Assembly: GCA_000004695.1 (NCBI GenBank)
Contig: CM000154.2
Location: 4,928,001 to 4,992,000, forward strand
Source: Dictyostelium discoideum
Lineage: Eukaryota
Length of the DNA stretch: 64,000 nt
Direction: 5' to 3'
A program made the translations under genes and the position numbers. The notes below the pieces were generated by a model. It did no database searches. It was not told the origin of the DNA and saw nothing but the letters and a program-made list of their open reading frames with translations. This document shows, one piece after another, positions 744 through 58,471 of this stretch (its first letter is position 1; every line of letters starts with the position of its first letter).

Positions 744-2510
744 TTAATTTATATAACCTTCAGTTCTTAAATGATTTAAAATTAAAAGGATTGCATCTTT
801 TACTGAGGTATGAGTTGTATCAATTCTTAATTCTGGATTTTCTGGAGTTTCATATGGATCATCGATACCAGTGAAACCTTTGAGTTGACCACTTCTAACT
901 TTAGCGTATAAACCTTTACGATCTCTTTTTTCACAAGTTTCAATTGGAGTTGAGATATGAATTTCAATGAAACCACCATTTGGAGTGATTAAATCACGAG
1001 CAAATTTACGAGCACCAGCATAAGGTGCGATTGGGGCACAAATTGCAATACCACCAGCTTTTGAAATTTCAGAGGCAACGAAACCAATACGTTTGATATT
1101 GAGATCACGATGTTCTTTACTGAAACCCAATTCACTTGAGAGGAATGTACGAACGACATCACCATCTAAAAGAGTTATTGAACGACTACCATCTTCAAGG
1201 AGTGCTTCATTTAATGCATTTGCGATTGTACTTTTACCACTACCACTGAAACCTGTAAAGAAAACTGTAAAACCTTGTTTTGAACGTGGTGGACATGAAT
1301 CCCTTAAAATTTTAACCACCTTTTCATAGGTGAACCAATTTGGAATTTCACCACCAGTACGAAGGAGATGACGTAATTTTGTGCCAGAGATATTTGCAGT
1401 TTCTAAACCCTCTGGAACTTCATCGACTGGATAATATTTATCGTGTGCTGGTACGTAAACCATCATTTGGAATGGAAGGATTTTAATTGATAAACGATTG
1501 GCTAATTTAAGTGCCAATTCTTGAGCTTCGTATGGTTGATAAAATAGGTTGCCTTGTTTGTCCTCACCTGGACCTGCATGATCTCTACCAACGATGAAAT
1601 GATTACAACCGAAATTCTTTCTAATAATTGCGTGCCAAACTGCCTCTCTTGGTCCACCCATTCTCATGGCCAATGGCAAGAGTGAGAGTGTTGCCAATCC
1701 CTCTGGATAGGAGTCCATGATCTCTTTATAACATTTAACACGTGTGTGGTAATCGATATCGCCTGGTTTGGTCATGCCAACTACTGGTTGAATTAAAAGG
1801 TGACAATTTGCATTCAACTCGGCTGCTCTAACTGTAAGTTCTCTGTGTGCTCTATGCATTGGATTACGAGTTTGGAAGGCGATAACGTTCTCCCAACCTT
1901 TGGTTTTAAATAATTCTCTCACTTGAATTGGTGTACGACGGAGACCGTTGTAATCGTAGTGTACTGGTAATTGGGCACCCTCAAGCTTGCCGCTTACATA
2001 GTACTCTTTGGTATTGAAAATTGTGGAAACACCTGGATGGTATGGGTCAATGGATCCCATTGTCTTTTTGGCTTCGTTCTCTTTATTTGGTGTATAATAA
2101 TTTGAAACGGTTAAAACTGCTATTAAATTTCCCTCTTCATCACGTAATGCCATTTGTTTACTATCGGTTGCTAAAACTGTATCCAAGCATTCCTTGCTTA
2201 TATCCAATACTATTGGCATTGGGAATAATAATCCCTCATCTTTATCACCATCGATTGTCATGGTTTCAACAACATTATTATAGATGGTTTCGTCCATAAA
2301 TGTACTCAATGGTGAGAAACCACCATTCATCAATAATTCTATATCACATAATTGCTTCTTTGTTAATAATAAACTTGGTAATGAAATTGATCTTTGTTTT
2401 AATTCTACTAATTCTTCTCCTTCTAAAATTAAATTTATTAATTCTCCGCCATGTGGGATTGAACCATAAAGTTTGGAATTATTTGTTGTTAAAATATCTG
2501 GTGATACCAT
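744..2510 (-). CDS. Bifunctional PAPS synthase. The N-terminal ATP sulfurylase domain (QTRN and GRDHAG motifs) is fused to a C-terminal APS kinase domain (P-loop GFSGSGKST, LDGD and KGFTGIDDPYE motifs). Single exon, 588 aa.
   Basis: One continuous ORF on the minus strand. The motifs were recognised by eye in the translated ORF. Typical AT-rich flanks. Confidence 0.88.
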   Translation of the reverse strand: MVSPDILTTNNSKLYGSIPHGGELINLILEGEELVELKQRSISLPSLLLTKKQLCDIELLMNGGFSPLSTFMDETIYNNVVETMTIDGDKDEGLLFPMPIVLDISKECLDTVLATDSKQMALRDEEGNLIAVLTVSNYYTPNKENEAKKTMGSIDPYHPGVSTIFNTKEYYVSGKLEGAQLPVHYDYNGLRRTPIQVRELFKTKGWENVIAFQTRNPMHRAHRELTVRAAELNANCHLLIQPVVGMTKPGDIDYHTRVKCYKEIMDSYPEGLATLSLLPLAMRMGGPREAVWHAIIRKNFGCNHFIVGRDHAGPGEDKQGNLFYQPYEAQELALKLANRLSIKILPFQMMVYVPAHDKYYPVDEVPEGLETANISGTKLRHLLRTGGEIPNWFTYEKVVKILRDSCPPRSKQGFTVFFTGFSGSGKSTIANALNEALLEDGSRSITLLDGDVVRTFLSSELGFSKEHRDLNIKRIGFVASEISKAGGIAICAPIAPYAGARKFARDLITPNGGFIEIHISTPIETCEKRDRKGLYAKVRSGQLKGFTGIDDPYETPENPELRIDTTHTSVKDAILLILNHLRTEGYIN

Positions 2511-4934: not shown

Positions 4935-5145
4935 ACCTATTTTGGTAATTAAAAAAAAAAAAAAAAAAAAAACAAAAGATATTAAAAAAAAAAAAAGTAT
5001 GGATAAATTAGTATATAATATAATCTATTTTGTTGTTTTTTTTTTTTATTTTCTTTTCTTTTTTTTTTTTTTTAAAGCAATGTTTGATGAAGCTTGTGTT
5101 GATCAACTTATATTTTTTAAAATCATTTTTTTTTAAGCAATGTTT

Positions 5146-6191
5146 CTAAACTTTATCATCATCTGCCTGAGATTCCATCACTTCATCAATTTTATCGCCA
5201 GTGATTGAACCAGGTGGAGGTAGTGGCTTTACACACCTACCAATATCTCCATTCTCAATGTTTGGAAAGAATACTTTCTATTTTTAATAATGGTATTAGA
5301 ATTTAATGAATAAAAAGTAGTGTACAGTTTATATTTTTTAATTATTCTTATAAAACTTACGATAATTTCGGTAACATCATTATAAAATGAAGCTTGGTCA
5401 ATGTTATTAAACACTTGTATATTATTGATTGAATTCATTTTGTAATGACTAAATAGGCAAAATATAAGTTGATCAACACAAGCTTCATCAAACATCACTG
5501 AAATAGAATTACTGGTACCAATTGGAGTGATAGTACAAGGGGTATTGGTACTTGATGGTGAAAATTCAAATTTAAAATTATTTGGAGTTTGAGTCTGCTC
5601 TAAATAAACTCTATTTATATTACCACTAAGTTGGACTATTTTTTCAGTAGCTAAAGAAGAGAAATAATTATTCTTCAATACTTGTGAAACAGTGATAACA
5701 AGATTTGGATTGGAGGAAATTATCATAACAGGTTCTGAGTGTATGTCTTTTTGACTAGGAGTAACAATAAGATTTATATTTGAAATGATATTAAATTTAG
5801 CCGATGATTCATATGGACATTCGGGTGACTGTAGACATATGTGTACTTTATCTTTTACACTTGGGAAAACATCAATTGAAATGTCCTCAGTTTTATAGCC
5901 TACTGTATCAGGTTGGACAAGGAGTGGAGCATTCGTGGTTTTATAGTTTGATTGTTTTGGTTCAATAACTCTTTTTGGAAGTGGGTTTAGTGTTTGTGGT
6001 ATTAAAATTTCAAATCCCATTGGATTATCTAGATTTTGAGCGGCAAATTGATTCATTATCCAAGAAAAGTCTATTTCAGTTCCTATCGTTGATTGTGGGA
6101 CACCAAGTTTTGCAATATTATAGGTTATATCTTTTCTTATCCATGTTACATGTCTTTCCATATAATCAACTAAATATCCAATACCATCCAT
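5146..6191 (-). CDS. Hypothetical protein of about 347 aa in two exons: complement(join(5361..6191,5146..5277)). The 83-nt intron spans 5278-5360 (GTAAGT...AATAG). Function not recognised.
   Basis: The ORF-track ORF 5229..6191 reads through a canonical GTAAGT donor at 5360. Splicing to the AG at 5278 shifts the frame, which then runs cleanly to a TAG at 5146-5148. A possible AATAAA lies at 5045-5050 on the minus strand. Confidence 0.5.
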
Positions 6192-6347: not shown

Positions 6348-7712
6348 TTAAAATAATATTATTTTTATCTTACCTTGACCTCTTTGCCAATTTAGATCAC
6401 CTAAACAAAAGGTTTTTTGTTGACCATCATCACTGGTACCATACATTAACTTTGAATGATCTTTTGAGGAACTTCTTTGTGGATTTACATCTATGAATGG
6501 ATAATTGAGTCTTAATGCTATTGAGAAACTTGTACCAGAAACTACATTATTAGCAAATCCCTTTATTGTATTTGATGTCATTGTTTGAGACATCCATTTC
6601 GAAATATTTTTGTAATATTTACCAATATATTGCCATAATAATTCAATGTTATTCATTTGAGCAAAGTTTTTTGAAGATGGTTCGGCAATAATTCCTTTCT
6701 TTTGTGGGAGTGAAGTTTGAACAAAATATTCACCAAAGGAATATTTATTTACATGATAATAATGAGAAGATTTGAAGTTTGCATCTGATGAGAATTCAAA
6801 ATTTTCAGAAATATGACCAGCCTGGAAAATAAATAAAAAAAAAGTTGTAAAATTTGAGTGAGTATTTATTATCACAATAAAATAAACAATAATAAAAATA
6901 ATTATACATACCAATTTAGCCCATTGTAAAATTTTAATTTTTCTAGAGAGAGTTGAACCTACAAAAAAATTTTTCTTAATAATTTCATCGATTTCTGAAA
7001 AATATTTCTTTTTCTTTAAATCATCATCTGTTACTGTATCTAATTTTGTTTCGTCTACATCATTGATACCTGTTAGACTTGTTGCGAGTAATTTGCTTAA
7101 CATTTTACCTTTGTCGAATTTATGGTTATTTATTGCTTTAATTGCAGGGTTAGTATATATCAAATATTTTGGAATAATATCTAATTCATTTGGTTTCAAT
7201 GTAATACAAATTGAATGTTGTAAATAACTATCTTCAGAACTATGTAAAAAGAAATCATCAATTTCTTGAGGTGTGTAGGGGATACTATGAATTACGTGAA
7301 TACCACCATGTTCATTCCAAATAAAAAACCCTTTTGCATGTGCACTCCCTTTACCGTCATCAAAAGCATTATTGTAAGAAATACTTGAAAATATATTACC
7401 GTTGGCTTGACCGAATGTTTGAGTAATTGGAGATACCTGGTCTTTAACTCTCATATTATATTTACTTAATTCAAGTATTTTTTCATTTTTGTTCTTTAAA
7501 TTGCTATCTGTATAAAAAGATGAACCACTACCTTTATCTCCAGGTTTATTAAAATGTTCATAAATCCACCAATCAACATAATTTTCAGCGGGTTTTAAGC
7601 TTGGATTTGATGATTTTGCATAAATATCATTGTATAAACATCTCGGAACTTGTTGACATTTAATTATTGAAAATAAAATAAATAATAAAAATATTTTAAT
7701 CAAATTTTTCAT
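6348..7712 (-). CDS. Deoxyribonuclease II (acid DNase) homologue with an N-terminal signal peptide. Two exons: complement(join(6912..7712,6348..6821)). The 90-nt in-frame intron spans 6822-6911.
   Basis: Signal peptide MKNLIKIFLLFILFSIIKC. The first HxK motif GSAHAKGFFIWNEHGGIHVIHSIPYTP resembles human [25 protein letters not shown]. The second catalytic motif DHSKLMYG...CLGDLNWQ lies near the C-terminus. The intron is GTATGT...TTTCCAG and its translation is implausibly hydrophobic (VCIIIFIIVYF...). Confidence 0.83.
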   Translation of the reverse strand: MKNLIKIFLLFILFSIIKCQQVPRCLYNDIYAKSSNPSLKPAENYVDWWIYEHFNKPGDKGSGSSFYTDSNLKNKNEKILELSKYNMRVKDQVSPITQTFGQANGNIFSSISYNNAFDDGKGSAHAKGFFIWNEHGGIHVIHSIPYTPQEIDDFFLHSSEDSYLQHSICITLKPNELDIIPKYLIYTNPAIKAINNHKFDKGKMLSKLLATSLTGINDVDETKLDTVTDDDLKKKKYFSEIDEIIKKNFFVGSTLSRKIKILQWAKLVCIIIFIIVYFIVIINTHSNFTTFFLFIFQAGHISENFEFSSDANFKSSHYYHVNKYSFGEYFVQTSLPQKKGIIAEPSSKNFAQMNNIELLWQYIGKYYKNISKWMSQTMTSNTIKGFANNVVSGTSFSIALRLNYPFIDVNPQRSSSKDHSKLMYGTSDDGQQKTFCLGDLNWQRGQGKIKIILF

Positions 7713-8260: not shown

Positions 8261-16594
<8,334 letters not shown>

Positions 16595-24078: not shown

Positions 24079-25439
24079 TTAAGATACTGGATAACCATGA
24101 TAATTTTGATTATTTAAATTATTAAGTTGATTTTGGTTATGAATAATATTGTTTTTTAATTGAGTTATTGATTCATCTACCAATTGTTGTTGATGAGATA
24201 ATTGTTGTTGATGCTGTTGTTGCTTTAATAGTTCAGCAGTATTTGAAATTGATAATGGAATGATATGATCAAGTTCTTGACGTTTTGGAATACCATTTGA
24301 AGATGATAATGGGGTGTCGACACCACCATCACCACCACTACTATTATTGTTGTTATGAGTATTTTGTGCTACATTATCAGCTCCAACATCACCATCCATA
24401 GCATTATCATCATTTGAACTTATCATAAAAGTTGATGATGGTATAATTGTATTTGATTCTCTAATAAAATGATGGTGATGTGATGAACCATTAATTAATG
24501 GAGTTGAATGATTTTCTTCATCATCATTTGCGCCACCACCACTACCACTACCACTACCCTTACCTTTTTTATTAAGTAATATTCCTCCATTATTATTATT
24601 ATTATTATTATTAAATTCTTCATTATTGCTTCCACTACCACCATTTGCTTCAATATCATCATTACAATTATTATTTTTATTAGCACCACCACTACCACTA
24701 CCACCAGTAATTTCATTTAAATCAACCTCAACATTTTCAAATGGAACGAATGGAGAACCAACTCTACTTGATAAACCACCATTTTCTCTATAAGATTTCA
24801 AATTGATTCTCATTACTAATCCGAAAATGATAGCTTGACAAATTGGAACTACGACATAAGTTGAAAAGGACATATAATCGAATGGAACATGGAATACTAA
24901 ACTAAGTATGGAAAATACACCACCAAAGAAATCCATTACAACAAAAATCATACTAAGTCCAACCTTTTCTTGATAAACTTCTAAAATTTGTGGAAAGAAT
25001 CCAACTGCCATTAAACCTGTTGCTGCAATGGTCAATATTAATTGTAAAACAAAGGAATTGGTATGCTTTGCATTCAAAATTGAATAGAGTGAAATAATTG
25101 TTGCAATCGTTACTAAAACACATAATCCTATTGTAAATAATAATCTTTTTAAATTATATTTTCTTTTTTTAAAAAAAAATAAAAAAATCAATTGTTAATT
25201 AAAATAAATAAATGAAAAATAGGGGTGGTAAATATACAAACTTACTTTTGATAAAATAAATGTTGCATGACAATTACTAAACTGAAAAGAGAAAAACATG
25301 AAATTTGAACTACAAGTGCTGGTGGTTCTCTATTAAAAACTAAATTTGTACCTAAAATAACACCACATGCATACCAACATCCAAAACATGTTGGTGATAC
25401 ACCCTTGGTTGATTTTCTTTTGTAATTTAAGTGAACTTT

Positions 25440-26951: not shown

Positions 26952-27620
26952 TTATAATTTCTTATAATTTCCAAAATTAATTTCATTTTCTAATTCTTTT
27001 AAATCTTCAGTATAATTTATCCAAACATAGCCTAATAAATCAGAAGGTAAATCATAATTTTGAGATTTACCATTATATGGAACCGATAAATAAATTACAT
27101 TTGATCTACCGAATTTTCCAATTAAATAACCAAATTCGAAAACTACATTTAATCTTGGATATGCAATTTCAACATAATCAGAATTTGAATCTTTTTTAGT
27201 AAAAGCTTTATTATCGGGTGACATTATTACAATACCAAATTTACAATTTGAAATTTCTTTCTCTAATTTTTCAATTATTGTTTGACCATTATTTGGTTTT
27301 TCAAATAATAAAATTGGTTCAAATCCCATTTCAAATAAAAATTTTGAAACTTTTTCTCTTACAATATTATTATGACCATGAACAATGAAAACTTTTATTC
27401 TTTCATTATTCCCATTACTAATACTATTATTATTATAATTATTATTATTATTATTATTAATAACACTACTATTTGTGTTTACTGTTGATACACTATTATT
27501 ATTATTATTATTATTATTTGGTATTATGTCAATTGATTTTATAATATTACTACTATTATTTAATGATATAAAAAAAATTAAAAAATAAAATAAAACTAAT
27601 AGTCTAAAAATATACTTCAT
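26952..27620 (-). CDS. Small secreted or membrane-anchored protein of 222 aa. An N-terminal signal peptide/anchor and an Asn-rich linker precede a bacterial-type TIR-like nucleotide-binding domain of the COG4271/PF10137 kind (Predicted nucleotide-binding protein containing TIR-like domain). Intronless.
   Basis: Signal peptide MKYIFRLLVLFYFLIFFISL. The domain KVFIVHGHNNIVREKVSKFLFEMGFEPILLFEKPNNGQTIIEKLEKEISNCKFGIVIMSPDNKA...RLNVVFEFGYLIGKFGRSNVIYL matches the remembered family consensus KVFIVHGHD..A...V..FLEKLGLEPIIL.EQ.N.GRTIIEKFE......FAVVLLTPDD.....R.NVIFELGYF.GKLGR.RV. Codon usage and the N-linker are host-like. Confidence 0.68.
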   Translation of the reverse strand: MKYIFRLLVLFYFLIFFISLNNSSNIIKSIDIIPNNNNNNNNSVSTVNTNSSVINNNNNNNYNNNSISNGNNERIKVFIVHGHNNIVREKVSKFLFEMGFEPILLFEKPNNGQTIIEKLEKEISNCKFGIVIMSPDNKAFTKKDSNSDYVEIAYPRLNVVFEFGYLIGKFGRSNVIYLSVPYNGKSQNYDLPSDLLGYVWINYTEDLKELENEINFGNYKKL

Positions 27621-27989: not shown

Positions 27990-29842
27990 TTAACTTTTCT
28001 TTTCTGAAGAAGCAAATATTGTACTTTTTCTAGGAGGTGGTGGATTTGATTGACTTGGAGATGATTTATTTGTAATTTTACTATTATTTTTAGTTGATGT
28101 TGTTGTTGTACTTTGTGATTTTTTATGATTTTGTGAAGAAGCAGAAGTTGTTGAAGTTGATAAAGAAGTTGAAGATGAAGAAGTTAAATTTGAAAAGAAT
28201 CCTTTACTACCACTGCTGCTGCTTTCAATAGCAGGTCTTAATGATAATACACTTGGTAAATCATCTGCTACTATGTTGTTATTATTGTTATTATTATTTT
28301 CATTATTATCTAAATCTTTCCAATCAGAAGTTGCTTTTGTCATTAATAAAGTTTTAATAAATTTCTCTTTATCAATATTTTTTAATTGAACGAAATAAAT
28401 TGATTTCTCCATAAATAGTAATATTGAATTTGTTAGATTGAAAATATCTAAAACGTCAATAACTCTAATTTTACTTGATAATGAAACATCAATGATATTC
28501 CAAATTCTATTATTTGATTTCAAACCACTTAGTATTGATTTTTGAGCCTTTTGTAATAACACTAAACAATCATTAAACGAATAGAATATTGTCTCTTTTG
28601 AAACTTTAAATTCATCTGGAAATACCCATTGTTCAGTCAATTCATCACTTGATGATTTACCACCTGATCTATATTTCTTTAATCTCTTTAATAATGAATC
28701 CTCTTCTTTTAATGGATAAATTGAATGTATAAAAAATTCACCATCTAAAATATATTTTCTACCATTTTCATGAATATTCTAATAATAAAGTGTGTGTGTG
28801 AGTGTGTGTGAGCAGCTATGTATATACATAAATATATATACATATAAGTTAATTTAATAATACTTACAACTTTATCAATTATTGTTTCTTGAAGTTGTTG
28901 AGTTTTAATTTGATTATCATCATCTCTTTTTGCTTCATTAATGAAAGAAGTAACTTCTTTAATACCTTTTAAACATTTATTTAATAATTTTACATTTGCA
29001 TGATTTGGAGGTGTCTGTTTAATTAATTCACTCAATAATAAAACATAACGTGGTAAACGTTGAACTGGCATAATCAATATTGAATTCAAATCAAGTCCAT
29101 TACATCTACTATCATTTCTACATTTTTCTAAAAAATTTGAAAAATCTTTTTTCTTTCTTAATCTCGCTAATAATGTCACTGATGCATCATATCCAATAAT
29201 ATAATTACTATACATTTTAAAATTTTCTTGCTATTTTTAAAAAATAAAAAAAAAAAAAAAAAAAAGGGGACAGGGGTAGAGCGAAGGAGTTAATAATAAT
29301 AATAATAATATTTATTTATTTATTTGATATATATATATATATAATAAACTTACATTTTTATTAAAAATATTTGTAATTGCAACAGTTGATTCCAATGAGG
29401 TGATTTCTTTTAATTTTTGAGGTTTTGAATTTGGTGATGAGAAAGTGGTTGTAGTGGTGGTAACTGTTGATAATCTATTTTGATTGGTTGTAGTTACTGT
29501 TGTTTTAGTTAGAGAATTGGGAGGTAAGATATCATTTGACCAACTGAAAGAGTTATAACAAATGGCTAACTCTGTAAAGAATTCAACATGAAATTTTAAT
29601 AAATCTTCAGTTAAGAAAATTGATTTAATATGTTCTTCTTTTATTAATGACTTATGTTGATTTCTTAATGGGTCAATATAAACCTCTTGAATCGCTGATA
29701 AATAAGTTACATAAGATTTCTCAGTTTGTATAATTTCTTCTAATATTAATTCTCTCTTTTTTTTAGTTGATTCATCTTCATCATTTTTACTATTACTACC
29801 ACCACCACTATTTGATGATGTTGTAGAATTATTATTACCCAT
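27990..29842 (-). CDS. Rho guanine-nucleotide exchange factor with a DH domain, a PH domain and a Ser/Thr-rich tail. The N-terminus MGNNNST fits an N-myristoylation consensus. Model: complement(join(29354..29842,28868..29230,27990..28778)), about 546 aa.
   Basis: DH motifs ILEEIIQTEKSYVTYL and LNSILIMPVQRLPRYVLLLSELIKQTP. The PH region is RKYILDGEFFIHS...SFNDCLVLLQK. Introns are GTAAGT...TAG with phase 0 at both junctions. Confidence 0.8.
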
Positions 29843-29986
29843 TTTTTGTATTTGAATAAAAAAAAAAAAAGTGGGAAAATAAAAAAATAAAAAAATAAAA
29901 AAATAAAAAAAAAGAATAAAAAAAAAAATCTGAAAAAAAAAAAAAAAAAAATTTAAAAAAATAAAACAAAATAAAAAATCAGATTT

Positions 29987-31180
29987 TTTTTTCAAATAAA
30001 AGAAACTTTTTTTTATTTGCACCATCAAACCTAAAAAGGTTAAAGGGTTAGAAGGTTTACACCAATATTTTTTTTTTTTTTTATTTTTTTTTATTTTTTT
30101 TTTTTTTTTTATTTTTTTTTTTTTTAATTTTTTTTTTTTTTATTTTTTTTTTTTTTAATCAATTTTGTTGTGTTGTTAGGGTCCTTGGAAAAAAAAAAAA
30201 TGAGTCGAAACCGCCACCACCACCCAGATTCTACTGAAAAACTTTTTCAATATGATAACTTAATGGAATTTGAATTTGGGAATGATTGTACAGCAGAATG
30301 TGTCAAGGAAGTAGTGGAAAGACTTGAAATGTATAAAACTGCATCAATACTTTATCAATCACTCAAAGTAAACTAAGATGGTACCTTACCTCTTTTTCAA
30401 CTTAGAGATGTGTTAAACTACAAAAGTGGTAATGATCATTTAGTTCAAAACAAAAATATTCAAGATCTCTTTACAGTCAATATTTTGGATCTTAATTTTC
30501 CTGGTACAAGAAAAAGAACAGATATCAGGCCAACAAAAAAAGAAGAAAATTAATAATAATAAAAAAAATATATATATTTTTTAAAAGATTATTACACAAA
30601 CCTACTACTGGTCGACCATGGCCTCAAATCACTTCAGGTTACATAAATAAACATATAAATAAATAAATAATTTAATTCATTGTTGAAATATAAATTTCTT
30701 TATTATTATCATTTATTAAGTTGAAATTTGAAAAGCATAATTTTAATATTGATTTGGAATAAACTCAAATTCATTTTTAATTTGTTTTTAAGTGATCAAA
30801 AGCAAACAAAAAATTGCTTAAACTGAAGTGATTAAAAAAAAAAAAAAAAAATTTTAAAAGTAATAATGTATTGATATTATAATTTTATTATGTTATGATT
30901 GTGGTGATGTTGTCTTGGTTGGGCTCTCACAGCCAATACTCATTTTATTCGATTACAAACAAATTAAAAATATAATAGTCATATCTGATTTTTTTTTCAA
31001 AATAAAAGAAGTTTTTTTTTTTATTTGCACAGTCAAACCTAAAAAGGTTAAAGGGGTTAGAAGGTTTATGGTATTTTTTTTTATTTTTTTAATTTTTTTA
31101 ATTTTTTTTATTAATTTTTTTTTTTTTTTAATCAATTTTATTGTGTTATTAAGAAAAAGGGTCCTAAGAAAAAAAAAAAA
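29987..31180 (+). repeat. A ~200-bp direct repeat in two copies (about 29987-30190 and about 30975-31180, roughly 85-90% identical outside the homopolymer tracts). The copies bracket a small ORF.
   Basis: Aligned by eye: ...caaataaaagaaRcttttttttatttgcacMRtcaaacctaaaaaggttaaaggg(g)ttagaaggttta...ttaatcaattttRttgtgttRtta...gtcct..gaaaaaaaaaa. Confidence 0.55.
30200..30432 (+). CDS. Possible small protein of about 64 aa in two exons: join(30200..30367,30406..30432). It reads MSRNRHHHPDSTEKLFQYDNLMEFEFGNDCTAECVKEVVERLEMYKTASILYQSLK|RCVKLQKW.
   Basis: The ORF-track ORF 30170..30376 is followed by a GTAAAC donor and a CTTAG acceptor, in frame to a TAA. Not recognised. It may be spurious. Confidence 0.3.
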
Positions 31181-31990: not shown

Positions 31991-34900
31991 ATGTCACAAA
32001 AACAAAAACCAATTAGATTTCAAGATTATCAATTCACAGCAACCAAAGATGAAGCATATGGTAGATCGGATAGATATGTAAAACAATTTTTAAATAAAAA
32101 TTTATTAAAGAAAAAGGATGGAACATTGGGAACTGCTGAAGAGCTATTAACATTGATTCAACAATCCAATATAAATGTTGTGACAGCATCAACGGGTGGA
32201 GCAGCAATGGGTGCAATGTTAAATCATACCGTATCAACCATTAATCTAACTGGTAGTGGTAGTGTACCAACCTATAATCCATCAGATAATAGAAATAGTG
32301 GATCACATGTAATAACAAGTACAAATAGTGTAATTAGTAATTCAAGTATAAGTAGTACTGGTGTAATAAATAATAATATAAATAATAATAGTAATATAAA
32401 TAGTAATACAGGAACGACGACAACAACAATATCATTACCAAATAATACAGAAATAAAAACAGCATTAGTTTCAACTGGTAGTCAAAATGCATCCGATACA
32501 GCACAGATTGATATAGAATTTCATTTATCGTATACACAATTGGTGACATTACCACCAAGTATATTTAGTTTAATTTGGATTCAAAAGTTGGTATTGACTC
32601 ATCATAATATAAAAACATTGAGTGAAGATATTGGAAAGTTACAACAACTTCAAGTGTTGGTATTGGAGAATAATAGATTGATCAATTTACCTCAATCAAT
32701 TGGTGACTTGGTAAATTTGAAGAGATTAGAAGTCGATAACAATCATTTGGTATCACTATGTTCATTGGAGCGATTGTCAAAACTTGAAGTCCTCTCTGTA
32801 AATAATAATAAATTAACCCTATTGCCAACTTCTATCGCTTCCCTCTCTAGTTTGAAAACTTTAAATATTAAATCAAATCCAATCATTACACCACCATCAA
32901 CTGTTGTCTCTAAAGGTTTAAAAGATATTGTATCATTTCTTCGTGAATTAGAAACTGGTGCTAGACCATGTTTAAGATCAAAATTGGTAGTTTTAGGTGA
33001 TCGTAAGTGTTTTTTCGTAAAAATAAATATTAATTTAAATCAAATGATAATTGATAATATATTAATATATGTATTTTTTAATAAAAAAAGCTGGAGTTGG
33101 TAAAACATCAGTTGTACAATGTATGAAAGGTAAAAAGAAAAAAACAAATGTAACAAGTAGTAGTATAAATATTGGTGGATCAAGTGGATCAGAAGTTGGA
33201 ATTGAAATTGATCAATATGATTTTGATGTTGTATTTGATGAAGATGATAAAAAGAGAAGAGTGATAACCTTATCAACATGGGATATCGCTAATCAAGATG
33301 TTTACTTTGCAAGTAGTCAATTGTTTGATTCAGAGAGATCAGTGTATATAGTGGTATTCAATTTGAACAATGATGATTTCTCTGCCATAGAATATTGGTT
33401 ACATTGTATCATGAGTACATCACCAAATTCACCGATTGTATTGGTGGGTACACATATTGATGCATTTGAAAATTTAAATGTTGTCAATGCGGTATTGGAG
33501 AGTGTTGCCTCGAGATTTCAAAAGAGATTCACAAATATTCAAGCCATCATCTCGGTTTCATGTACCACCGGTTACGATGTCGACAAGTTACGTCAACTCA
33601 TTGAGGACATCATAAAGACTCAACCTTATCTCAAAGAGAAAGTCCCAAGTAGTTTCTTTACACTCGAGGAGGCATTGATCGAGGTGAAAAAGAAAAGAAT
33701 TCCACCAGTGATGATGTGGCAAGAATATATCAACCTAGCAAACATTTGTAATCTTAAAGACTCTGTTCAAATTCAACGTGCCACGGAATTCCTTCACAAT
33801 ATTGGCTCCATCGTTTATTTCAATGATTTAAATTCATCAACTGTTGGTAAAATGGTGATTTTGGATCAACAATGGATCATCAATTGTATGTCCTCTTTAA
33901 TCACCTCAAAGTTACTCATAAACAATTGTAATGGTATCGTTAGACAATCCGATTTGGAATTGGTTTGGAAAGCTCCAACTTATCCTGAACATCTTCATCC
34001 AGCTTTACTCTCTATCATGCAAGCATTTGAAATTTGTCGTTCATTATCACCATCGGATCTTGTACGTCCAGAGGAGGTCAATGAAAAAGAGGTCATGGGT
34101 GATCGTAATTTAGTACCAAATCTATTATCTGACAATACAAACATTGTAGCTCAATGGGATGATTTCATCGATCCTGATACAATCTTATTGAATAGACAAT
34201 ATCATTTACCATTTTTACCAGAGAAATTCTTTGGAAAGTTAATCATTCATCTTATGAATTTTACTAAAGTTGAAAGTTGTCAAAAACGTGCCGTTATCTT
34301 AAGAAATCAAGATAATCATGAAGCTTTAATTGAATTGAAAACAATTAAAGATAATAAAGATGGTACTTTTAAAAAGATTCTAACTGTTGATGTTCGTGGT
34401 CTAGTTTCACCAGTTAGTTTATTACGTATTGTAACTGATACAATTGAATCTTTATTTTCACAATGGTACAAATTAGATATTAAAAGGTAAAAATTTAATT
34501 AATTAAAAATAATAATTTTTTTTATTTAATTATTAACATTTTTTTTTTTTTATTTTTTTAATATAGATATATAAGTTGTTATGAATGTGCAATTTTATAT
34601 GATAGAAATCCAACATTATTTACAATTGAAGAATGTGAACTTGCAGTAATTGATGGTAAAACAGTTTTAACATGTAATCAAAAGAGTGATTCAGATAGAG
34701 TTTCAACATCACATAGATTGAAATTGGATATATTGGCACCAGATATTTCAATGGTAGATATACCAATACCAAGATTTAATTTAAGCGAAGTAAAGATCAA
34801 TAAAGAGGTTGGTCGTGGTGCATTTGGTATTGTTTATGAAGCGGAATGGATGAGTGAATGGATAGCATTGAAAAAGTTATTATTACCTTCATCAACCGAT

Positions 34901-37900
34901 ACAACCAATCTCAATGGTAATGGCGAAGTTATGGTCTACGATGATCCAGATCAATTGATTGAAGATCGTTTACGTGTATTTAGAGAGTTTAGACATGAGG
35001 TTTACTATATGAGTGGACTCAATCATCCAAATGTTATGAAAATCAGCGGTTTTTGTATTCAACCTTTATGTATGGCATTAGAGTATGTTCGTTATGGTTC
35101 ATTGTATAGTTTACTCTCAAATTCAAGTATAGAAATTAGTTGGGGACTACGTTTACAAATTGCTAGTGAAATCGCCAAAGGTATGCAACATCTTCATTCT
35201 CATAATCCACCCGTCATTCATAGAGATCTAAAGAGTCCAAATATACTCTTGAATGGTATTACCGAGGGTCAAAACTCAGTGGCCACAATCATTGATTTCG
35301 GTACAAGTACTGCTTTGTATGGTGGTGCCGCTTTAATTCGTTGTGTTGATCAACCACTTTGGTTGGGTCCAGAGGTTTTGGCAGGCACTGCCTATAGTGA
35401 ACCATCAGATGTTTACTCTTTTGGTATCATACTTTGGGAATTGTATACACGTGCTCATCCATTTGATGAGTTTCAATTTGGTCAATGGATGAGTAAATTG
35501 GAAGATGAAATCATTAGAGGTTTACGTCCAACTATTCCACCAACTTGTCCACCAGAATATGTAGAATTAATTCAATCATGTTGGACTCATGAACCAAATA
35601 GTCGTCCAACTTTTACAAGTATTGTCGAAATTTTAGGTCAAATTAAAAAGAAATTTGCTCCTTTACCATTTACTCATCCACCACATATTAGAAATATGAT
35701 GAGAAAATCAAGATCTTCTTCAATTTCTGAAGCAATGTTACCTTCAAATTTATTACATTTAAATTTAAATGGTATTAATAATAATAATAATAATAGCAAT
35801 AATAATAATAATAGCATACCAGTTACAACTATAAGTTTAACATCAAGTGGTACATCACCAACAAATTCACCAGTTGGTGGATTATTATCACAAAGTTTAA
35901 CTCAACCAATAACTTCAGGTGGTAGTACAAGTGGAATTTTATCAACATCAGTTAATAGAGATAATTCATCATTGGTATCAGCATCATCATTAGGTAATAA
36001 TACATCAACATCATCATTGGCTTCATTGGTATCAAATAATAGTGGTTTACATCATTCACCATCAGCTTCAGATGGATTAAATGATTATTATGGTGCGGAT
36101 AATAATAACAATAATAATGATAGTACAATGGATTTCTTCCAAGATATTTTCACAGAGGAAGAGAATGAACAACCTTATCCATTTGCAGATGATGATCAAC
36201 AAAAAGGTATACTCTTTGGTTTCGATGAAGAACAAACCAATCCAAGTGCATCATCCGTTAGTATTATCATTGCTGCAACGATGGCAAAAATGATTGAAAT
36301 GATGACTAAAGGTGAAAGTTCAGCTACATTAAAGAGTGAACATATCTCCACAAGAAGAAGATCAGATACAGCGGGTAAAAATGGTGTACCACCACATTGG
36401 AGAAATTCAGTTCCATTATCAACAAACTCCTCCACCACTTTGGATGAAACTTTTATCGATGATTTCATCTATGTTTATCGTTCATTCACAACACCAAGAA
36501 ATATTTTCAAATTATTGGTTCGTAGATTCTTTGGACCAAGACATACAGATAAAGTTGATACATTTACAATTAAGAAATTTGAACAAAAGAAAGCTGCAAT
36601 TCGTCAAGGTATTGCAGTTTTCTTAAGAAAATGGGTGGCCGATATTACAGAGTTGGAATTTAGACAAGAGGAGTTTTGGTTATATCATAATACCGTGGCT
36701 TTCACTAAACAATTCATTGCATCTGAATTCCCAACTATTGCAACTCAAATCTATGGTACATTAACAACCCATGAGGATGAAGTAAATTTAACCAATCAAA
36801 GATTCCTTCAAATTGCTTTTAGCGAAAGTGAAATTCAAATTGATCGTGCAATGTCTTCAATGCAATTAACAACACCAAAACCATTTAGAAGTCAAAAGAA
36901 TTTAGCGAATAGTTATAACTCTCAAAGTGGTGGCGGTGATTCTTCATTCTATTATCAACCATCATCAAATGATGTATCAAGAGTATTTTTAAATCTTGCA
37001 ACTGGTATGAGAGATCCATTATTAGGTATAACGGTTAAAGAAAAAAAATTCAAAAAAGATAAAGTTTCAACACTTTGTTGTAGTGGTTCAGAGATTATAG
37101 ATTGGATTACCAAATGTATGCCAATTAAAAGAGAAGAAGCATCCATTTTAGTTTTGGATATGTTGATGAAACAATTCTTTATTCAAATTTCAGATGATGG
37201 TATACCCATTTCAAATCAAAAAGGTACCAATCCAACCTTTTCAGATTCACCAACCTCATTCTATATGTTTTTAGAGGACGATCCAGAATTGATTGCTCGT
37301 CAATACACTTTCCTTGAATTGAAATATCTTCAAAATATTCATCCAAGAGAATTGTTGGGTTTCTCTGTTGGTTTGGTAATGCCAAATGAAAATGAAAAGG
37401 ATCCTGAGAAATGGAGACAATCAAATTTCCCACATATCTATGATTATTTTAGATGGTTCAATAAGATGACAATGTTAGTTAGTACAGAAATTTTAAGACA
37501 AAGAGATATTAAACAACGTGCTTCAATCATTGAAAAGTATATCTCTATCGCATTGGAGTATCTTAGTCTTTGGAATTTCAATGGTATCATGCAAGTATTA
37601 AGTTCACTCCATAGTGAACCAATTTCAAGACTCTCTGCAACTTGGGCAAAAGTTTCTCAGAGATCAATGGATTGTTTCTATGAACTCTCACGTCTTATGT
37701 TACCCGAATCCAATTATTTACCACTTCGTACGGCTTTAGCCTCACAAAAACCAAACACTATCATTCAAGCCTCACCACTCTATCCAAATATCTCCGCCTA
37801 TATGGTACATACCGTTTGTCCTACCATTCCATTCCTTGGGGCTTTAATAGCTGATCTCTCTCAAACTTGTACAGAGAATCCAACATTCATTAGTAGTGGC

Positions 37901-40049
37901 GGTGAAAAGATGATCAATATTCTTCGTGTTAAACGTCTCTCTAAAAAGATGAAAATGTTCAAAGAATACAAAGAGATGCCAACTCAATACCTTCCTGCAT
38001 TGACAACCATTCCACTCCAATACTATGAACATTATGTAAATGATTTGAAAGCATTGGATAGTTTACAAATTGATCGTCTATCTGATATCGAAAGAAAACT
38101 TGAAATCATCTGTGAAAAGAATGGCACAACCAATGATGACAAAGAGAAAGGTGATGAGAATGGTGGTGGTTTGACTAGTAGTAATTTCTTTGGTAATGGT
38201 TCCGATGAATTAACTGAACGTGATTGGACTATCCTCTTAACAAATGCTTCTGTCATCGCCTATAATCGTGGTGATGTCGTCATGGAAGAGAATGCTATAA
38301 ACACTCATCTCTATCGTATAAAGAGTGGTGCTATCTCTGTTGAAAAGAAAGATAAAGAAGGTATCAATTGTAAGGTCGCTACGATGTTTGCTCCAAAGAT
38401 GTTTGGTGAAATGTCTTTCCTTGGTAATAAAACAACTGCTCGTTTAACCGTTGATGAAGAATCTGATCTCTACGTTATGGATATTCCTTTCTTAAATAAT
38501 CTATTCAATGGTCATCCACGTTTAGGTGCTAAATTCTATAAGATTATGGCAAATCAATTGGCAATTAGATTAAAGAATTTACCATGGTCAAAACCAAAAA
38601 ATACAACTGGTGGTAGTAGTAGTAGTAATCAATCTGCTGGTCCAGATAATATTTTAGGTACAACTCCAACTGGTATTAGTAGTAGTGGCGGTGGTTTAAC
38701 TTCATTATTAAATCAAAACCTTTCATCCATTATGTCATTATCAAATAGTAATACACCACCAGCATCACCAAGAGTAATGACTACACCAACATTACCATCT
38801 CCACCAGCTCCATTACAATCTCCACCAACCAGTGGTATTAGTTCACCAACAACAACAACATCAACAACAACTGATCAACAAAAAATTAATAATACAATTT
38901 TCCAAAATGTACATCCAACAATTAATGTTCATCGTACATCTTCATCAGCAAATTTAGTTTCTCCACATGGACGTCCATCAAATTCAGGTTTCGGTCATTC
39001 AAGTGGTGGTGAAAGAACCATTAATAAAGATCCACATCAAAGAGATAGTGGTAGTATGGATAAACCAATTCTATCACTTGGAAGTGGTGGTACACCTCGT
39101 GGTGATGGTGCTCGTAGTGGATCCATTAGTTATTTAGGTCGTACTCAAACCTCAACTTCACCATTGAATGAAGGTTTAAGCGGAGGTCAACAACCAGTTA
39201 TGAAAAAGAATGATCAAGAGTTTTGTCAAAGATTTGCATTGGTCGATGAAATTGTCATTAAAGATTATCCATGTTCATTAAACCGTTCCGGTAGATTGTA
39301 TATCTCTCAACAACATGTTTGTTTCTACAGTAAATTCTTTGGTTATAAAACTAAAAAGGTAATTCCATTCAAAAATATTGACAAACTAATTTGTATCAAT
39401 GTCAATCAAATAGAACTCACTCGTCTTAAAAACACCGTACCAAGTAATTATCGTTTAACTTTCCAAACTGGCAAAGATCGTGAAGATGCTTTCAGTATGA
39501 TTCATATCCTTTGGGATTCATCAAAAGTCTCCAATTCCTCCTCTGATGAAATCAAAAATAAATTGGCTGCCGAAAGAAAGAAAGTCAATAATCTTACACT
39601 CAAAACTCGTTCCAATAAAAACAAAGGCGATGAACTCACCAAAGAGGATTGGGAATTAATCGGTTGTGAAGGTTCACGTTCCTCCACTTTCAAAAAGGAT
39701 GAAGTAATCATTCGTGAAGGTGAACGTATGCAAAAGATTTTCCAAATTGGTAAAGGTGTTTGTCGTATTGAAAAATCAGTACCTGTTGCTCCTGGCTCTT
39801 CTGAAATGAAAAAAGTTGTACTTGGAACAATGAAACAAGATGATACCTTTGGTGAAATCACTTACCTCTTAAATGGTGAAACCACTGCTGATGTCATTGC
39901 TGACACTGATCAAACCGAGGTTTATACAATCGAAGGTCAATTTGTAAATATTTTATTCGATTTAAATCCTGCTTTAGCTTCAAAATGGTTTAAATATTTA
40001 GCCACTGCTTTAAACAAAACTTTAATTGAAAGAGAATCACAACTTTATG

Positions 40050-40054
<5 letters not shown>
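31991..40054 (+). CDS. gbpC: Roco-family cGMP-binding kinase GbpC. Domain order is LRR, Roc GTPase, COR, protein kinase, RasGEF-N, DEP, RasGEF, cNMP-binding, GRAM, cNMP-binding. 2631 aa in 3 exons: join(31991..33002,33091..34486,34567..40054).
   Basis: LRRs (LQVLVLENNRLINLPQSIGDL...). The Roc P-loop spans intron 1 (KLVVLGD|PGVGKTS). Kinase motifs VGRGAFGIVYEAEW, HRDLKSPNILL and DFGTS. RasGEF-N (FIYVYRSFTTPRNIFKLLVRRFFGP), DEP, RasGEF (ARQYTFLELKYLQNIHPRELLG), two cNB domains and a GRAM domain (RSGRLYISQQHVCFYSKFFGYKTKKV). Spliced length 7896 nt gives 2631 aa, matching my recollection of GbpC. Confidence 0.88.

Positions 40055-52831: not shown

Positions 52832-58471
<5,640 letters not shown>

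Follow-up and report, generated by a model that had tools for sequence, protein, structure and literature searches.

Identity and gene model of tirC

The DNA analyzed here is a 64,000-nucleotide stretch of the Dictyostelium discoideum genome (assembly GCA_000004695.1, contig CM000154.2, positions 4,928,001 to 4,992,000 of the forward strand), hereafter the window; unless stated otherwise, positions are those of the window. It contains an intronless gene, located at 26952–27620 on the minus strand, for which an initial annotation, made from the letters alone, had proposed a bacterial-type TIR-like domain on a secreted protein. The open reading frame (ORF), as given by the ORF list and its translation, starts with ATG and runs uninterrupted for 222 codons plus stop; the sequence blocks KVFIVHGH, TIIEKLE, FGIVIMSPD and RLNVVFEFGYLIGKFGR, on which the initial annotation was based, are all found in the translation. 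By exact-sequence look-up, the window protein is identical to KAM9948518.1 of D. discoideum, which shares one 90% cluster with DDB_G0291083 (UniProt Q54F65, "Protein tirC"). The ORF is D. discoideum tirC, a name in use by 2008 at the latest (Sillo et al.). The same gene was characterized as TirC by Culbertson et al. (2026, bioRxiv 10.64898/2026.04.30.722052; PMC13142454, hereafter the preprint). Since tirC had been both named and biochemically characterized before, the gene, its origin by horizontal gene transfer (HGT) and its NAD+-hydrolyzing (NADase) activity are already known, and their discovery is not new. Beyond the preprint, our analysis adds two points, the affinity of the nearest relatives of TirC to the PDC-S35 family and a sequence-based case for a luminal or secreted TIR domain.

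The intronless 222-residue gene model holds up well: in addition to the ORF list, it matches the annotations of other D. discoideum strains, and the preprint reports that tirC consists of one exon, that the intron in strain AX4 was mis-called and that the model of strain AX2 is backed by cDNA PCR. Compared to TirC of the preprint, there is no difference at the sequence level; the 222-residue single-exon protein and the E162 numbering are those of the AX2 model. The AX4 reference model (UniProt Q54F65) is 201 residues in length, begins with MNSNIIKS and has no hydrophobic N-terminus; it lacks the targeting segment due to the mis-called intron. Literature searches by DDB_G0291083 or Q54F65 returned no match. 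The G+C content of the tirC ORF is 19%, compared to 23.5% for the whole window. When the TIR domain was searched across the window by tblastn, only tirC itself was matched and no paralogue was found; therefore, tirB and tirD are located elsewhere. The features of tirC are listed in Table 1.

Table 1. Features of the tirC gene and its product, in window coordinates
Feature	Position	Strand	Basis
tirC coding sequence, single exon	26952..27620	-	ORF list; identity to KAM9948518.1; cDNA PCR in PMC13142454
Predicted N-terminal targeting segment, residues 1–24	27549..27620	-	hydropathy and charge; AF2 helix; conservation in orthologues
Disordered Asn-rich linker, residues 25–74	27399..27548	-	pLDDT; tandem repeat; length differences between strains
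CAP12/Pycsar-family TIR domain, residues 76–222	26955..27395	-	PF10137; PADLOC PDC-S35; AF2; Foldseek
Codon (GAA) of catalytic Glu E162, motif NVVFEFGY	27135..27137	-	computed position, read from sequence

TirC carries a prokaryotic-type TIR domain

The C-terminal 147 residues of TirC are a prokaryotic CAP12/Pycsar-family TIR domain (PF10137) of TIR fold. In the Pfam search, PF10137 (CAP12/Pycsar effector protein, TIR domain; COG4271-type) matched residues 76–204 with an E-value of 4.6e-37 and a score of 127.1 bits, far above the gathering cut-off of 24.7 bits; the match covers profile positions 1–118 of 119. Two models for TIR domains in general remained below their curated cut-offs, with 18 bits for PF01582 and 20 bits for PF13676. 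The structure was predicted by AlphaFold2 (AF2) from a 40-sequence alignment. For residues 75–222, the predicted local distance difference test (pLDDT) score, averaged in 10-residue blocks, exceeds 90 for most of the domain and stays at or above 81 throughout. Strands and helices alternate in the model, and one β-hairpin (residues 137–142 and 149–154) is located between strand C and helix C. In the Foldseek comparison with the PDB, the cryo-EM structures of TIR-STING (9lmq and 7un8) ranked at the top with E-values of ∼1e-6, followed by SPARTA TIR-APAZ, BtTir, AbTir, SARM1 and animal TIR domains. The PDB sequence search gave marginal matches only (E ∼0.1–0.2), so the link to TIR-STING could only be made through structure prediction and Foldseek.

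The Glu of the VVFEFGY motif is residue 162. It occupies one of the 14 invariant columns of the 40-sequence alignment, and it aligns with NVVFEFG of Sphingobacterium faecium TIR-STING (SfTIR-STING, 7un8 chain). Three proposals of the initial annotation are borne out by these results: the bacterial PF10137/COG4271-type domain by the 127-bit hidden Markov model match, the flavodoxin-like TIR fold by the AF2 model and its Foldseek ranking with TIR-STING as the best hit, and the catalytic role of the Glu in FEFGY by its invariance, its alignment with SfTIR-STING and the inactivity of the E162A mutant in the preprint. It had also placed the family in CBASS/Thoeris-type contexts. PF10137 is the family of CBASS Cap12 and Pycsar PycTIR, and the best model match of TirC is PADLOC PDC-S35; the Thoeris affiliation was rejected, as no Thoeris model is present among the PADLOC matches.

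According to the preprint, purified TirC is a potent NADase, which degrades NAD+, yielding nicotinamide plus ADP-ribose, and it self-assembles into void-fraction oligomers and filaments. The protein is toxic in both Escherichia coli and yeast; under standard conditions, NADase activity and toxicity are lost upon E162A substitution, the exception being the presence of PEG 8000 (polyethylene glycol). Amoebae tolerate full-length TirC-mNeonGreen, which forms puncta, whereas with TirC devoid of the N-terminal helix the amoebae round up and lyse, an effect that nicotinamide rescues. In yeast, the N-terminal segment directs full-length TirC to co-localize with the endoplasmic reticulum (ER), and the full-length protein is toxic in an E162-dependent manner even at the lowest detectable expression. 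No inhibitor of TirC was found among TirB and TirD. The phenotypes of tirC- mutants are mild, with smaller plaques on Klebsiella, less uptake of Legionella and clone-to-clone variation. Expression of tirC is raised in hypoxia (PMC13142454), as well as during phagocytosis and while cells grow on bacteria.

The nearest prokaryotic relatives of TirC are of PDC-S35 type

To place TirC among its relatives, we searched 1.84 billion representative sequences with phmmer. One amoebal cluster scored 324 bits and the next best match 106 bits; in total, 8232 representatives were found at E ≤ 0.001, and the median length of the best 150 matches is 269 residues. Eukaryote names among the matches listed come only from Polysphondylium violaceum and four species of Dictyostelium. 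With a profile built from five amoebal sequences, the best 120 matches included no named eukaryote beyond these; therefore, our survey of the N-terminus rests on five species. The closest prokaryotic or metagenomic sequences are 40–50% identical to TirC over the TIR domain.

Among the PADLOC models, five PDC-S35 models matched TirC best, with E-values from ∼1e-41 to 1e-34 and a top score of 139 bits; the CBASS TIR effector (1e-17, 60 bits) and PycTIR (2e-13, 48 bits) models were far weaker. PDC-S35 proteins, candidate single-gene defence proteins of prokaryotes, are ∼250–280 residues in length and consist of one uncharacterized N-terminal region and one PF10137 TIR domain. Eight nearest relatives were scanned, and all matched PDC-S35 over most or all of their length (E-values from 1e-65 to 1e-96); in the four that were checked, the N-terminal ∼110–130 residues have no Pfam match. 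Like TirC, PDC-S35 proteins contain the motifs KVFIVHGH, GQTIIEKLE, NVVFE-GY and GKxGR. Different from the prokaryotic relatives, which span the models end to end, TirC does not reach full-length PDC-S35 status: it aligns only to positions ∼63–253 of models that are 231–278 positions long (∼86–253 in the model of 278), i.e. the C-terminal two-thirds, and in place of the ∼110-residue prokaryotic N-terminal region it has the hydrophobic segment and the poly-Asn linker. The amoebal proteins are further marked by FGIVIMS-DN and YPRLNV, where the prokaryotic proteins have FAIVLLTPDD and RARQNV; the P. violaceum homologue shares both amoebal motifs. To our knowledge, PDC-S35 is a candidate defence system only, and literature searches for PDC-S35 found no mention of it.

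Among prokaryotes, the closest relative is P0005 (46% identity, PDC-S35-type), which is encoded in a bacterial metagenome-assembled genome (contig L001, 8001–11800; also GCA_002372485.1). The gene is located directly after hrcA-grpE-dnaK, and it is followed by one FRG-domain gene, one HinfI-like fragment and one LPD3-domain protein gene; among the genes called in the 16.8 kb covered, none encodes a nucleotide cyclase. The surroundings resemble a small variable islet.

Structurally, the closest solved relative of TirC is the CBASS effector SfTIR-STING (7UN8, a PDB entry that bears the name CD-NTase-associated protein 12), with a TM-score of ∼0.5 normalized to the 222-residue query. The two proteins share the catalytic FEFG Glu and, per the preprint, the same filament-forming NADase behavior; the sequence identity is ∼22–28%. 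Different from TIR-STING, TirC has no STING sensor domain, no control by cyclic dinucleotides and no CD-NTase neighbor; the Pfam scan of TirC identified neither a STING nor a SAVED domain. With the NCBIfam Cap12 equivalog NF050172, which has a cut-off of 450 bits, TirC reached 36.5 bits, and the TIR part alone was aligned. PycTIR and TirC belong to the same Pfam TIR family, PF10137; however, TirC has no N-terminal cNMP_binding match in Pfam, and its match to the PycTIR model is much weaker than that to PDC-S35. TirC falls outside Cap12, PycTIR and full-length PDC-S35 due to the lack of their sensor or N-terminal parts. The preprint presented TIR-STING as "one close relative" with 21.7% identity. 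Judged by profile matches and identities, the nearest prokaryotic relatives of TirC are the PDC-S35-type two-domain proteins and not TIR-STING, a point that goes beyond the preprint.

The N-terminal segment and the linker

Residues 1–24 of TirC start with MKYIFR, which contains Lys2 and Arg6, continue with one 14-residue apolar run, LLVLFYFLIFFISL, and end with the polar residues NNSS. AF2 predicted one helix at residues 2–25. The segment is kept in D. cf. discoideum, in D. firmibasis and, once the gene model is extended, in D. dimigraforme. The annotated D. dimigraforme orthologue (GCA_054859025.1, P0003) is 189 residues in length and starts at an internal Met; its ORF extends in frame to the ATG at L004:4950 (4950–5570), yielding a protein of 206 residues with the N-terminus MKTILLFFIYYLIFFISMIYIV. 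Owing to this in-frame upstream ATG, we consider the deposited D. dimigraforme model truncated and the targeting segment conserved. The apolar core measures 13–14 residues in three species (D. discoideum, D. cf. discoideum and D. firmibasis). Each of the four Dictyostelium orthologues carries more positive charge on its N-terminal flank than in the 15 residues that follow the core, with differences of −1 to −3; in D. discoideum, the net charge of these 15 residues is 0. Met residues of TirC are found at positions 1, 98 and 133 only, none of them between the helix and the TIR domain. N-glycosylation sequons of TirC are located at Asn21/22, Asn41, Asn50, Asn64 and Asn202.

The linker that follows is predicted to be disordered, with pLDDT scores below 50 for residues 27–69. 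It is encoded in part by one period-3 ATT/AAT repeat at 27414–27518 (34 copies, an (AAT)n microsatellite); the resulting poly-Asn stretch is in line with the Asn-rich linker of the initial annotation. TirC proteins of D. discoideum strains are 222, 219 and 218 residues in length; therefore, the length of the poly-Asn linker is polymorphic.

The P. violaceum homologue KAF2075049.1 is encoded by one continuous 360-codon ORF (L006, 5001–6083). The protein has one short hydrophobic core, FLFLLLLTL, ending with NINA|LP; it is followed by one 145-residue region, which contains 10 Cys residues and 10 N-X-S/T sequons and has no Pfam match, and the TIR domain comes directly after. No second hydrophobic segment was found before the TIR domain of KAF2075049.1; thus, the TIR domain should be located on the same side of the membrane as the Cys- and sequon-rich region. 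This secretory-type architecture is absent from the text of the preprint. Judged by sequence, the N-terminus of TirC may be a signal peptide or, alternatively, a signal anchor.

Genomic neighborhood and synteny

Downstream of tirC is one PQ-loop protein gene (24079–25191, minus strand), and upstream is one multi-exon RhoGEF gene (exons at 28745–30028, minus strand); further neighbors encode one N-acetyltransferase-family protein and one Roco-type kinase. The gene order RhoGEF-tirC-PQ-loop is kept in both D. dimigraforme and D. firmibasis, and in D. dimigraforme the N-acetyltransferase-family gene also follows. All these neighbors are ordinary host genes, and no CD-NTase operon context was found for tirC. 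The neighbors and the synteny in two sister species agree with the initial annotation, which had described tirC as a solo gene amid ordinary host genes (PQ-loop and RhoGEF). In the preprint, the loci were likewise described as amoebal and syntenic, without bacterial genes in their vicinity and without a co-transferred operon.

Other genes were also noticed in the window. The region at 31991–40054 (plus strand), two genes upstream of tirC, encodes leucine-rich repeat domain ORFs at 31991–33103 (plus strand) and kinase, RasGEF_N, DEP, RasGEF, GRAM and two cNMP-binding domains at 34718–40054 (plus strand); the syntenic gene of D. firmibasis also carries Ras/Roc and COR domains. The gene resembles the Roco-family cGMP-binding kinase gbpC and is an ordinary host gene. 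The window further encodes one bifunctional ATP-sulfurylase/APS-kinase of the PAPS synthase type (744–2510, minus strand), one DNase II family protein (6348–7712, minus strand), one IPT/TIG-repeat protein (13889–16594, plus strand) and one PH-domain PI3-kinase (52832–58090, minus strand).

Origin of tirC and topology of its product

Horizontal acquisition, which had been suggested by the initial annotation, is upheld by our searches: the named eukaryotic matches are dictyostelid only, and all other close relatives are prokaryotic. In the preprint, phylogeny nests TirB, TirC and TirD within the CAP12/Pycsar clade, indicative of HGT from prokaryotic TIR proteins. That tirC did not arise by HGT, being either an ancient, fast-evolving eukaryotic TIR gene or a bacterial contaminant of the assembly, is very improbable. 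The weak sub-threshold matches to PF01582 (18 bits) and PF13676 (20 bits) speak for this reading; however, both are below the cut-offs, whereas PF10137 reaches 127 bits, the non-dictyostelid relatives at 40–50% identity are all prokaryotic or metagenomic sequences of PDC-S35 type, and the nesting within the CAP12/Pycsar clade also argues against such an origin. Bacterial contamination was rejected: the G+C content is 19%, the gene contains a poly-Asn microsatellite, its flanking genes are amoebal and the synteny is conserved in three genomes. TirC aligns only to the C-terminal part of the PDC-S35 profiles, and its likely source is the TIR half of a captured PDC-S35-type gene; the donor was most probably one PDC-S35-type two-domain protein, the N-terminal part of which was lost.

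On which side of the membrane the TIR domain resides is a matter of rules of thumb, based on charge, core length and composition. According to the positive-inside and charge-difference rules, a more positive N-terminal flank leads to a cytoplasmic N-terminus and a translocated C-terminus; these rules reportedly go back to von Heijne and to Hartmann, Rapoport and Lodish in 1989. With the N-terminal flank more positive in four of four orthologues, an N-in/C-out orientation is predicted for TirC. The hydrophobic cores of signal peptides are usually 7–15 residues long, and typical membrane anchors are longer; the 13–14-residue core of TirC is within the signal-peptide range and shorter than typical anchors, which favors a luminal TIR domain. 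The Cys- and sequon-rich region of the P. violaceum homologue has a composition typical of extracellular or luminal proteins and points in the same direction. We judge a luminal or exoplasmic orientation to be about as likely as not, or slightly likelier. More specifically, we tentatively propose, at slightly less than even odds, that TirC, as a constitutively active NADase, ends up within the secretory or endolysosomal lumen or is secreted, rather than being tethered to a membrane on its cytosolic face. A luminal location would explain why punctate full-length TirC is tolerated by the amoebae whereas the cytosolic truncation is lethal. The preprint does not consider this topology; none of the terms signal peptide, secretion, lumen or topology is used in it.

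Several observations weigh against a luminal TIR domain. Full-length TirC is toxic in yeast in an E162-dependent manner (PMC13142454); therefore, some TIR domain must reach cytosolic NAD+ there. If the protein is luminal, this toxicity would need incomplete translocation in the heterologous host, which is plausible because toxicity was seen at the lowest detectable expression. The D. dimigraforme segment contains 20 apolar residues with a charge difference of −1, which fits a stable membrane anchor. There is no obvious small-residue (−3, −1) cleavage site after the D. discoideum core, and no sequon of the TIR domain is conserved, NYT at position 202 being replaced by HYT in D. dimigraforme and by RYK in P. 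violaceum. Moreover, a luminal NADase would be without an obvious substrate pool. The working model of the preprint, which we regard as possible but somewhat doubtful, takes the N-terminal helix as a transmembrane tether by which the TIR domain is kept at the cytoplasmic face, where an amoebal factor or the geometry of the tether keeps it inactive; proteolytic release or an alternative transcript would then lead to depletion of cytosolic NAD+ and cell death. The single hydrophobic helix at residues 2–25 in the AF2 model, the transmembrane-helix length of the D. dimigraforme segment and the dependence of the full-length puncta on E162-linked oligomerization are all consistent with such a tether, and the toxicity of full-length TirC located at the yeast ER is most simply explained by a TIR domain that faces the cytosol. 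However, the tether requires an N-out/C-in orientation, for which the residues after the helix are normally the more positive ones; in TirC, Lys2 and Arg6 precede the helix and the net charge after it is 0. The apolar core of D. discoideum and D. firmibasis, with 13–14 residues, is short for this purpose, and in P. violaceum the extracellular-type region is on the TIR side. As no Met is present between the helix and the TIR domain, an alternative transcript without the helix would have no ATG for an intact TIR domain, and no inhibitor was found among TirB and TirD in the preprint.

A proposed compartmentalized NADase in dictyostelids

Taken together, these observations indicate, with a probability of about 90%, that tirC encodes a prokaryotic CAP12/Pycsar TIR NADase that was acquired by dictyostelids and is compartmentalized, with targeting to the ER/secretory pathway. 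In this reading, dictyostelids took the TIR domain from a prokaryote, most probably from a PDC-S35-type donor minus its N-terminal part. The TIR domain oligomerizes, forms filaments and hydrolyzes NAD+ via E162, as shown in the preprint. In the amoeba, it would have been fused to the poly-Asn linker and the N-terminal hydrophobic segment, which may direct it to ER/secretory membranes. With an N-in/C-out orientation or a cleaved signal, the TIR domain would then end up in the lumen or outside the cell, in line with the proposal of the initial annotation. Compartmentalization of this kind would separate a NADase with constitutive, lethal activity from the NAD+ of the cytosol and may be the mechanism of its domestication; we propose that it accounts for both the tolerance of full-length TirC and the lethality of TirC lacking its N-terminus. 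If the N-in/C-out orientation holds, TirC would be similar to the CD38/ADP-ribosyl cyclase ecto-NADases in that its NAD+-consuming catalytic domain is on the luminal or outer side and is preceded by a signal or anchor at the N-terminus. The fold and origin of the CD38-type enzymes are unrelated to those of TirC, and the similarity is one of analogy only.

TirC represents a rare, recent capture of a bacterial anti-phage effector domain by a eukaryote, and it is an example of how an enzyme that lethally depletes NAD+ can become safe in a new host. The PDC-S35-type relatives point to a better model of the donor than TIR-STING, and, with TirC, the PDC-S35 candidate defence family gains its first biochemically characterized relative. 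If the TIR domain is indeed luminal or secreted, domestication would have been achieved through topological sequestration and not through an unknown inhibitor, and the role of the protein would have to be reconsidered, be it in the handling of prey, in phagosome surveillance or in extracellular NAD+ metabolism. TirC might then serve as a membrane-integrity "booby trap", which reaches cytosolic NAD+ only upon rupture of the compartment by pathogens or failed translocation; alternatively, it may act on extracellular or phagosomal NAD+.

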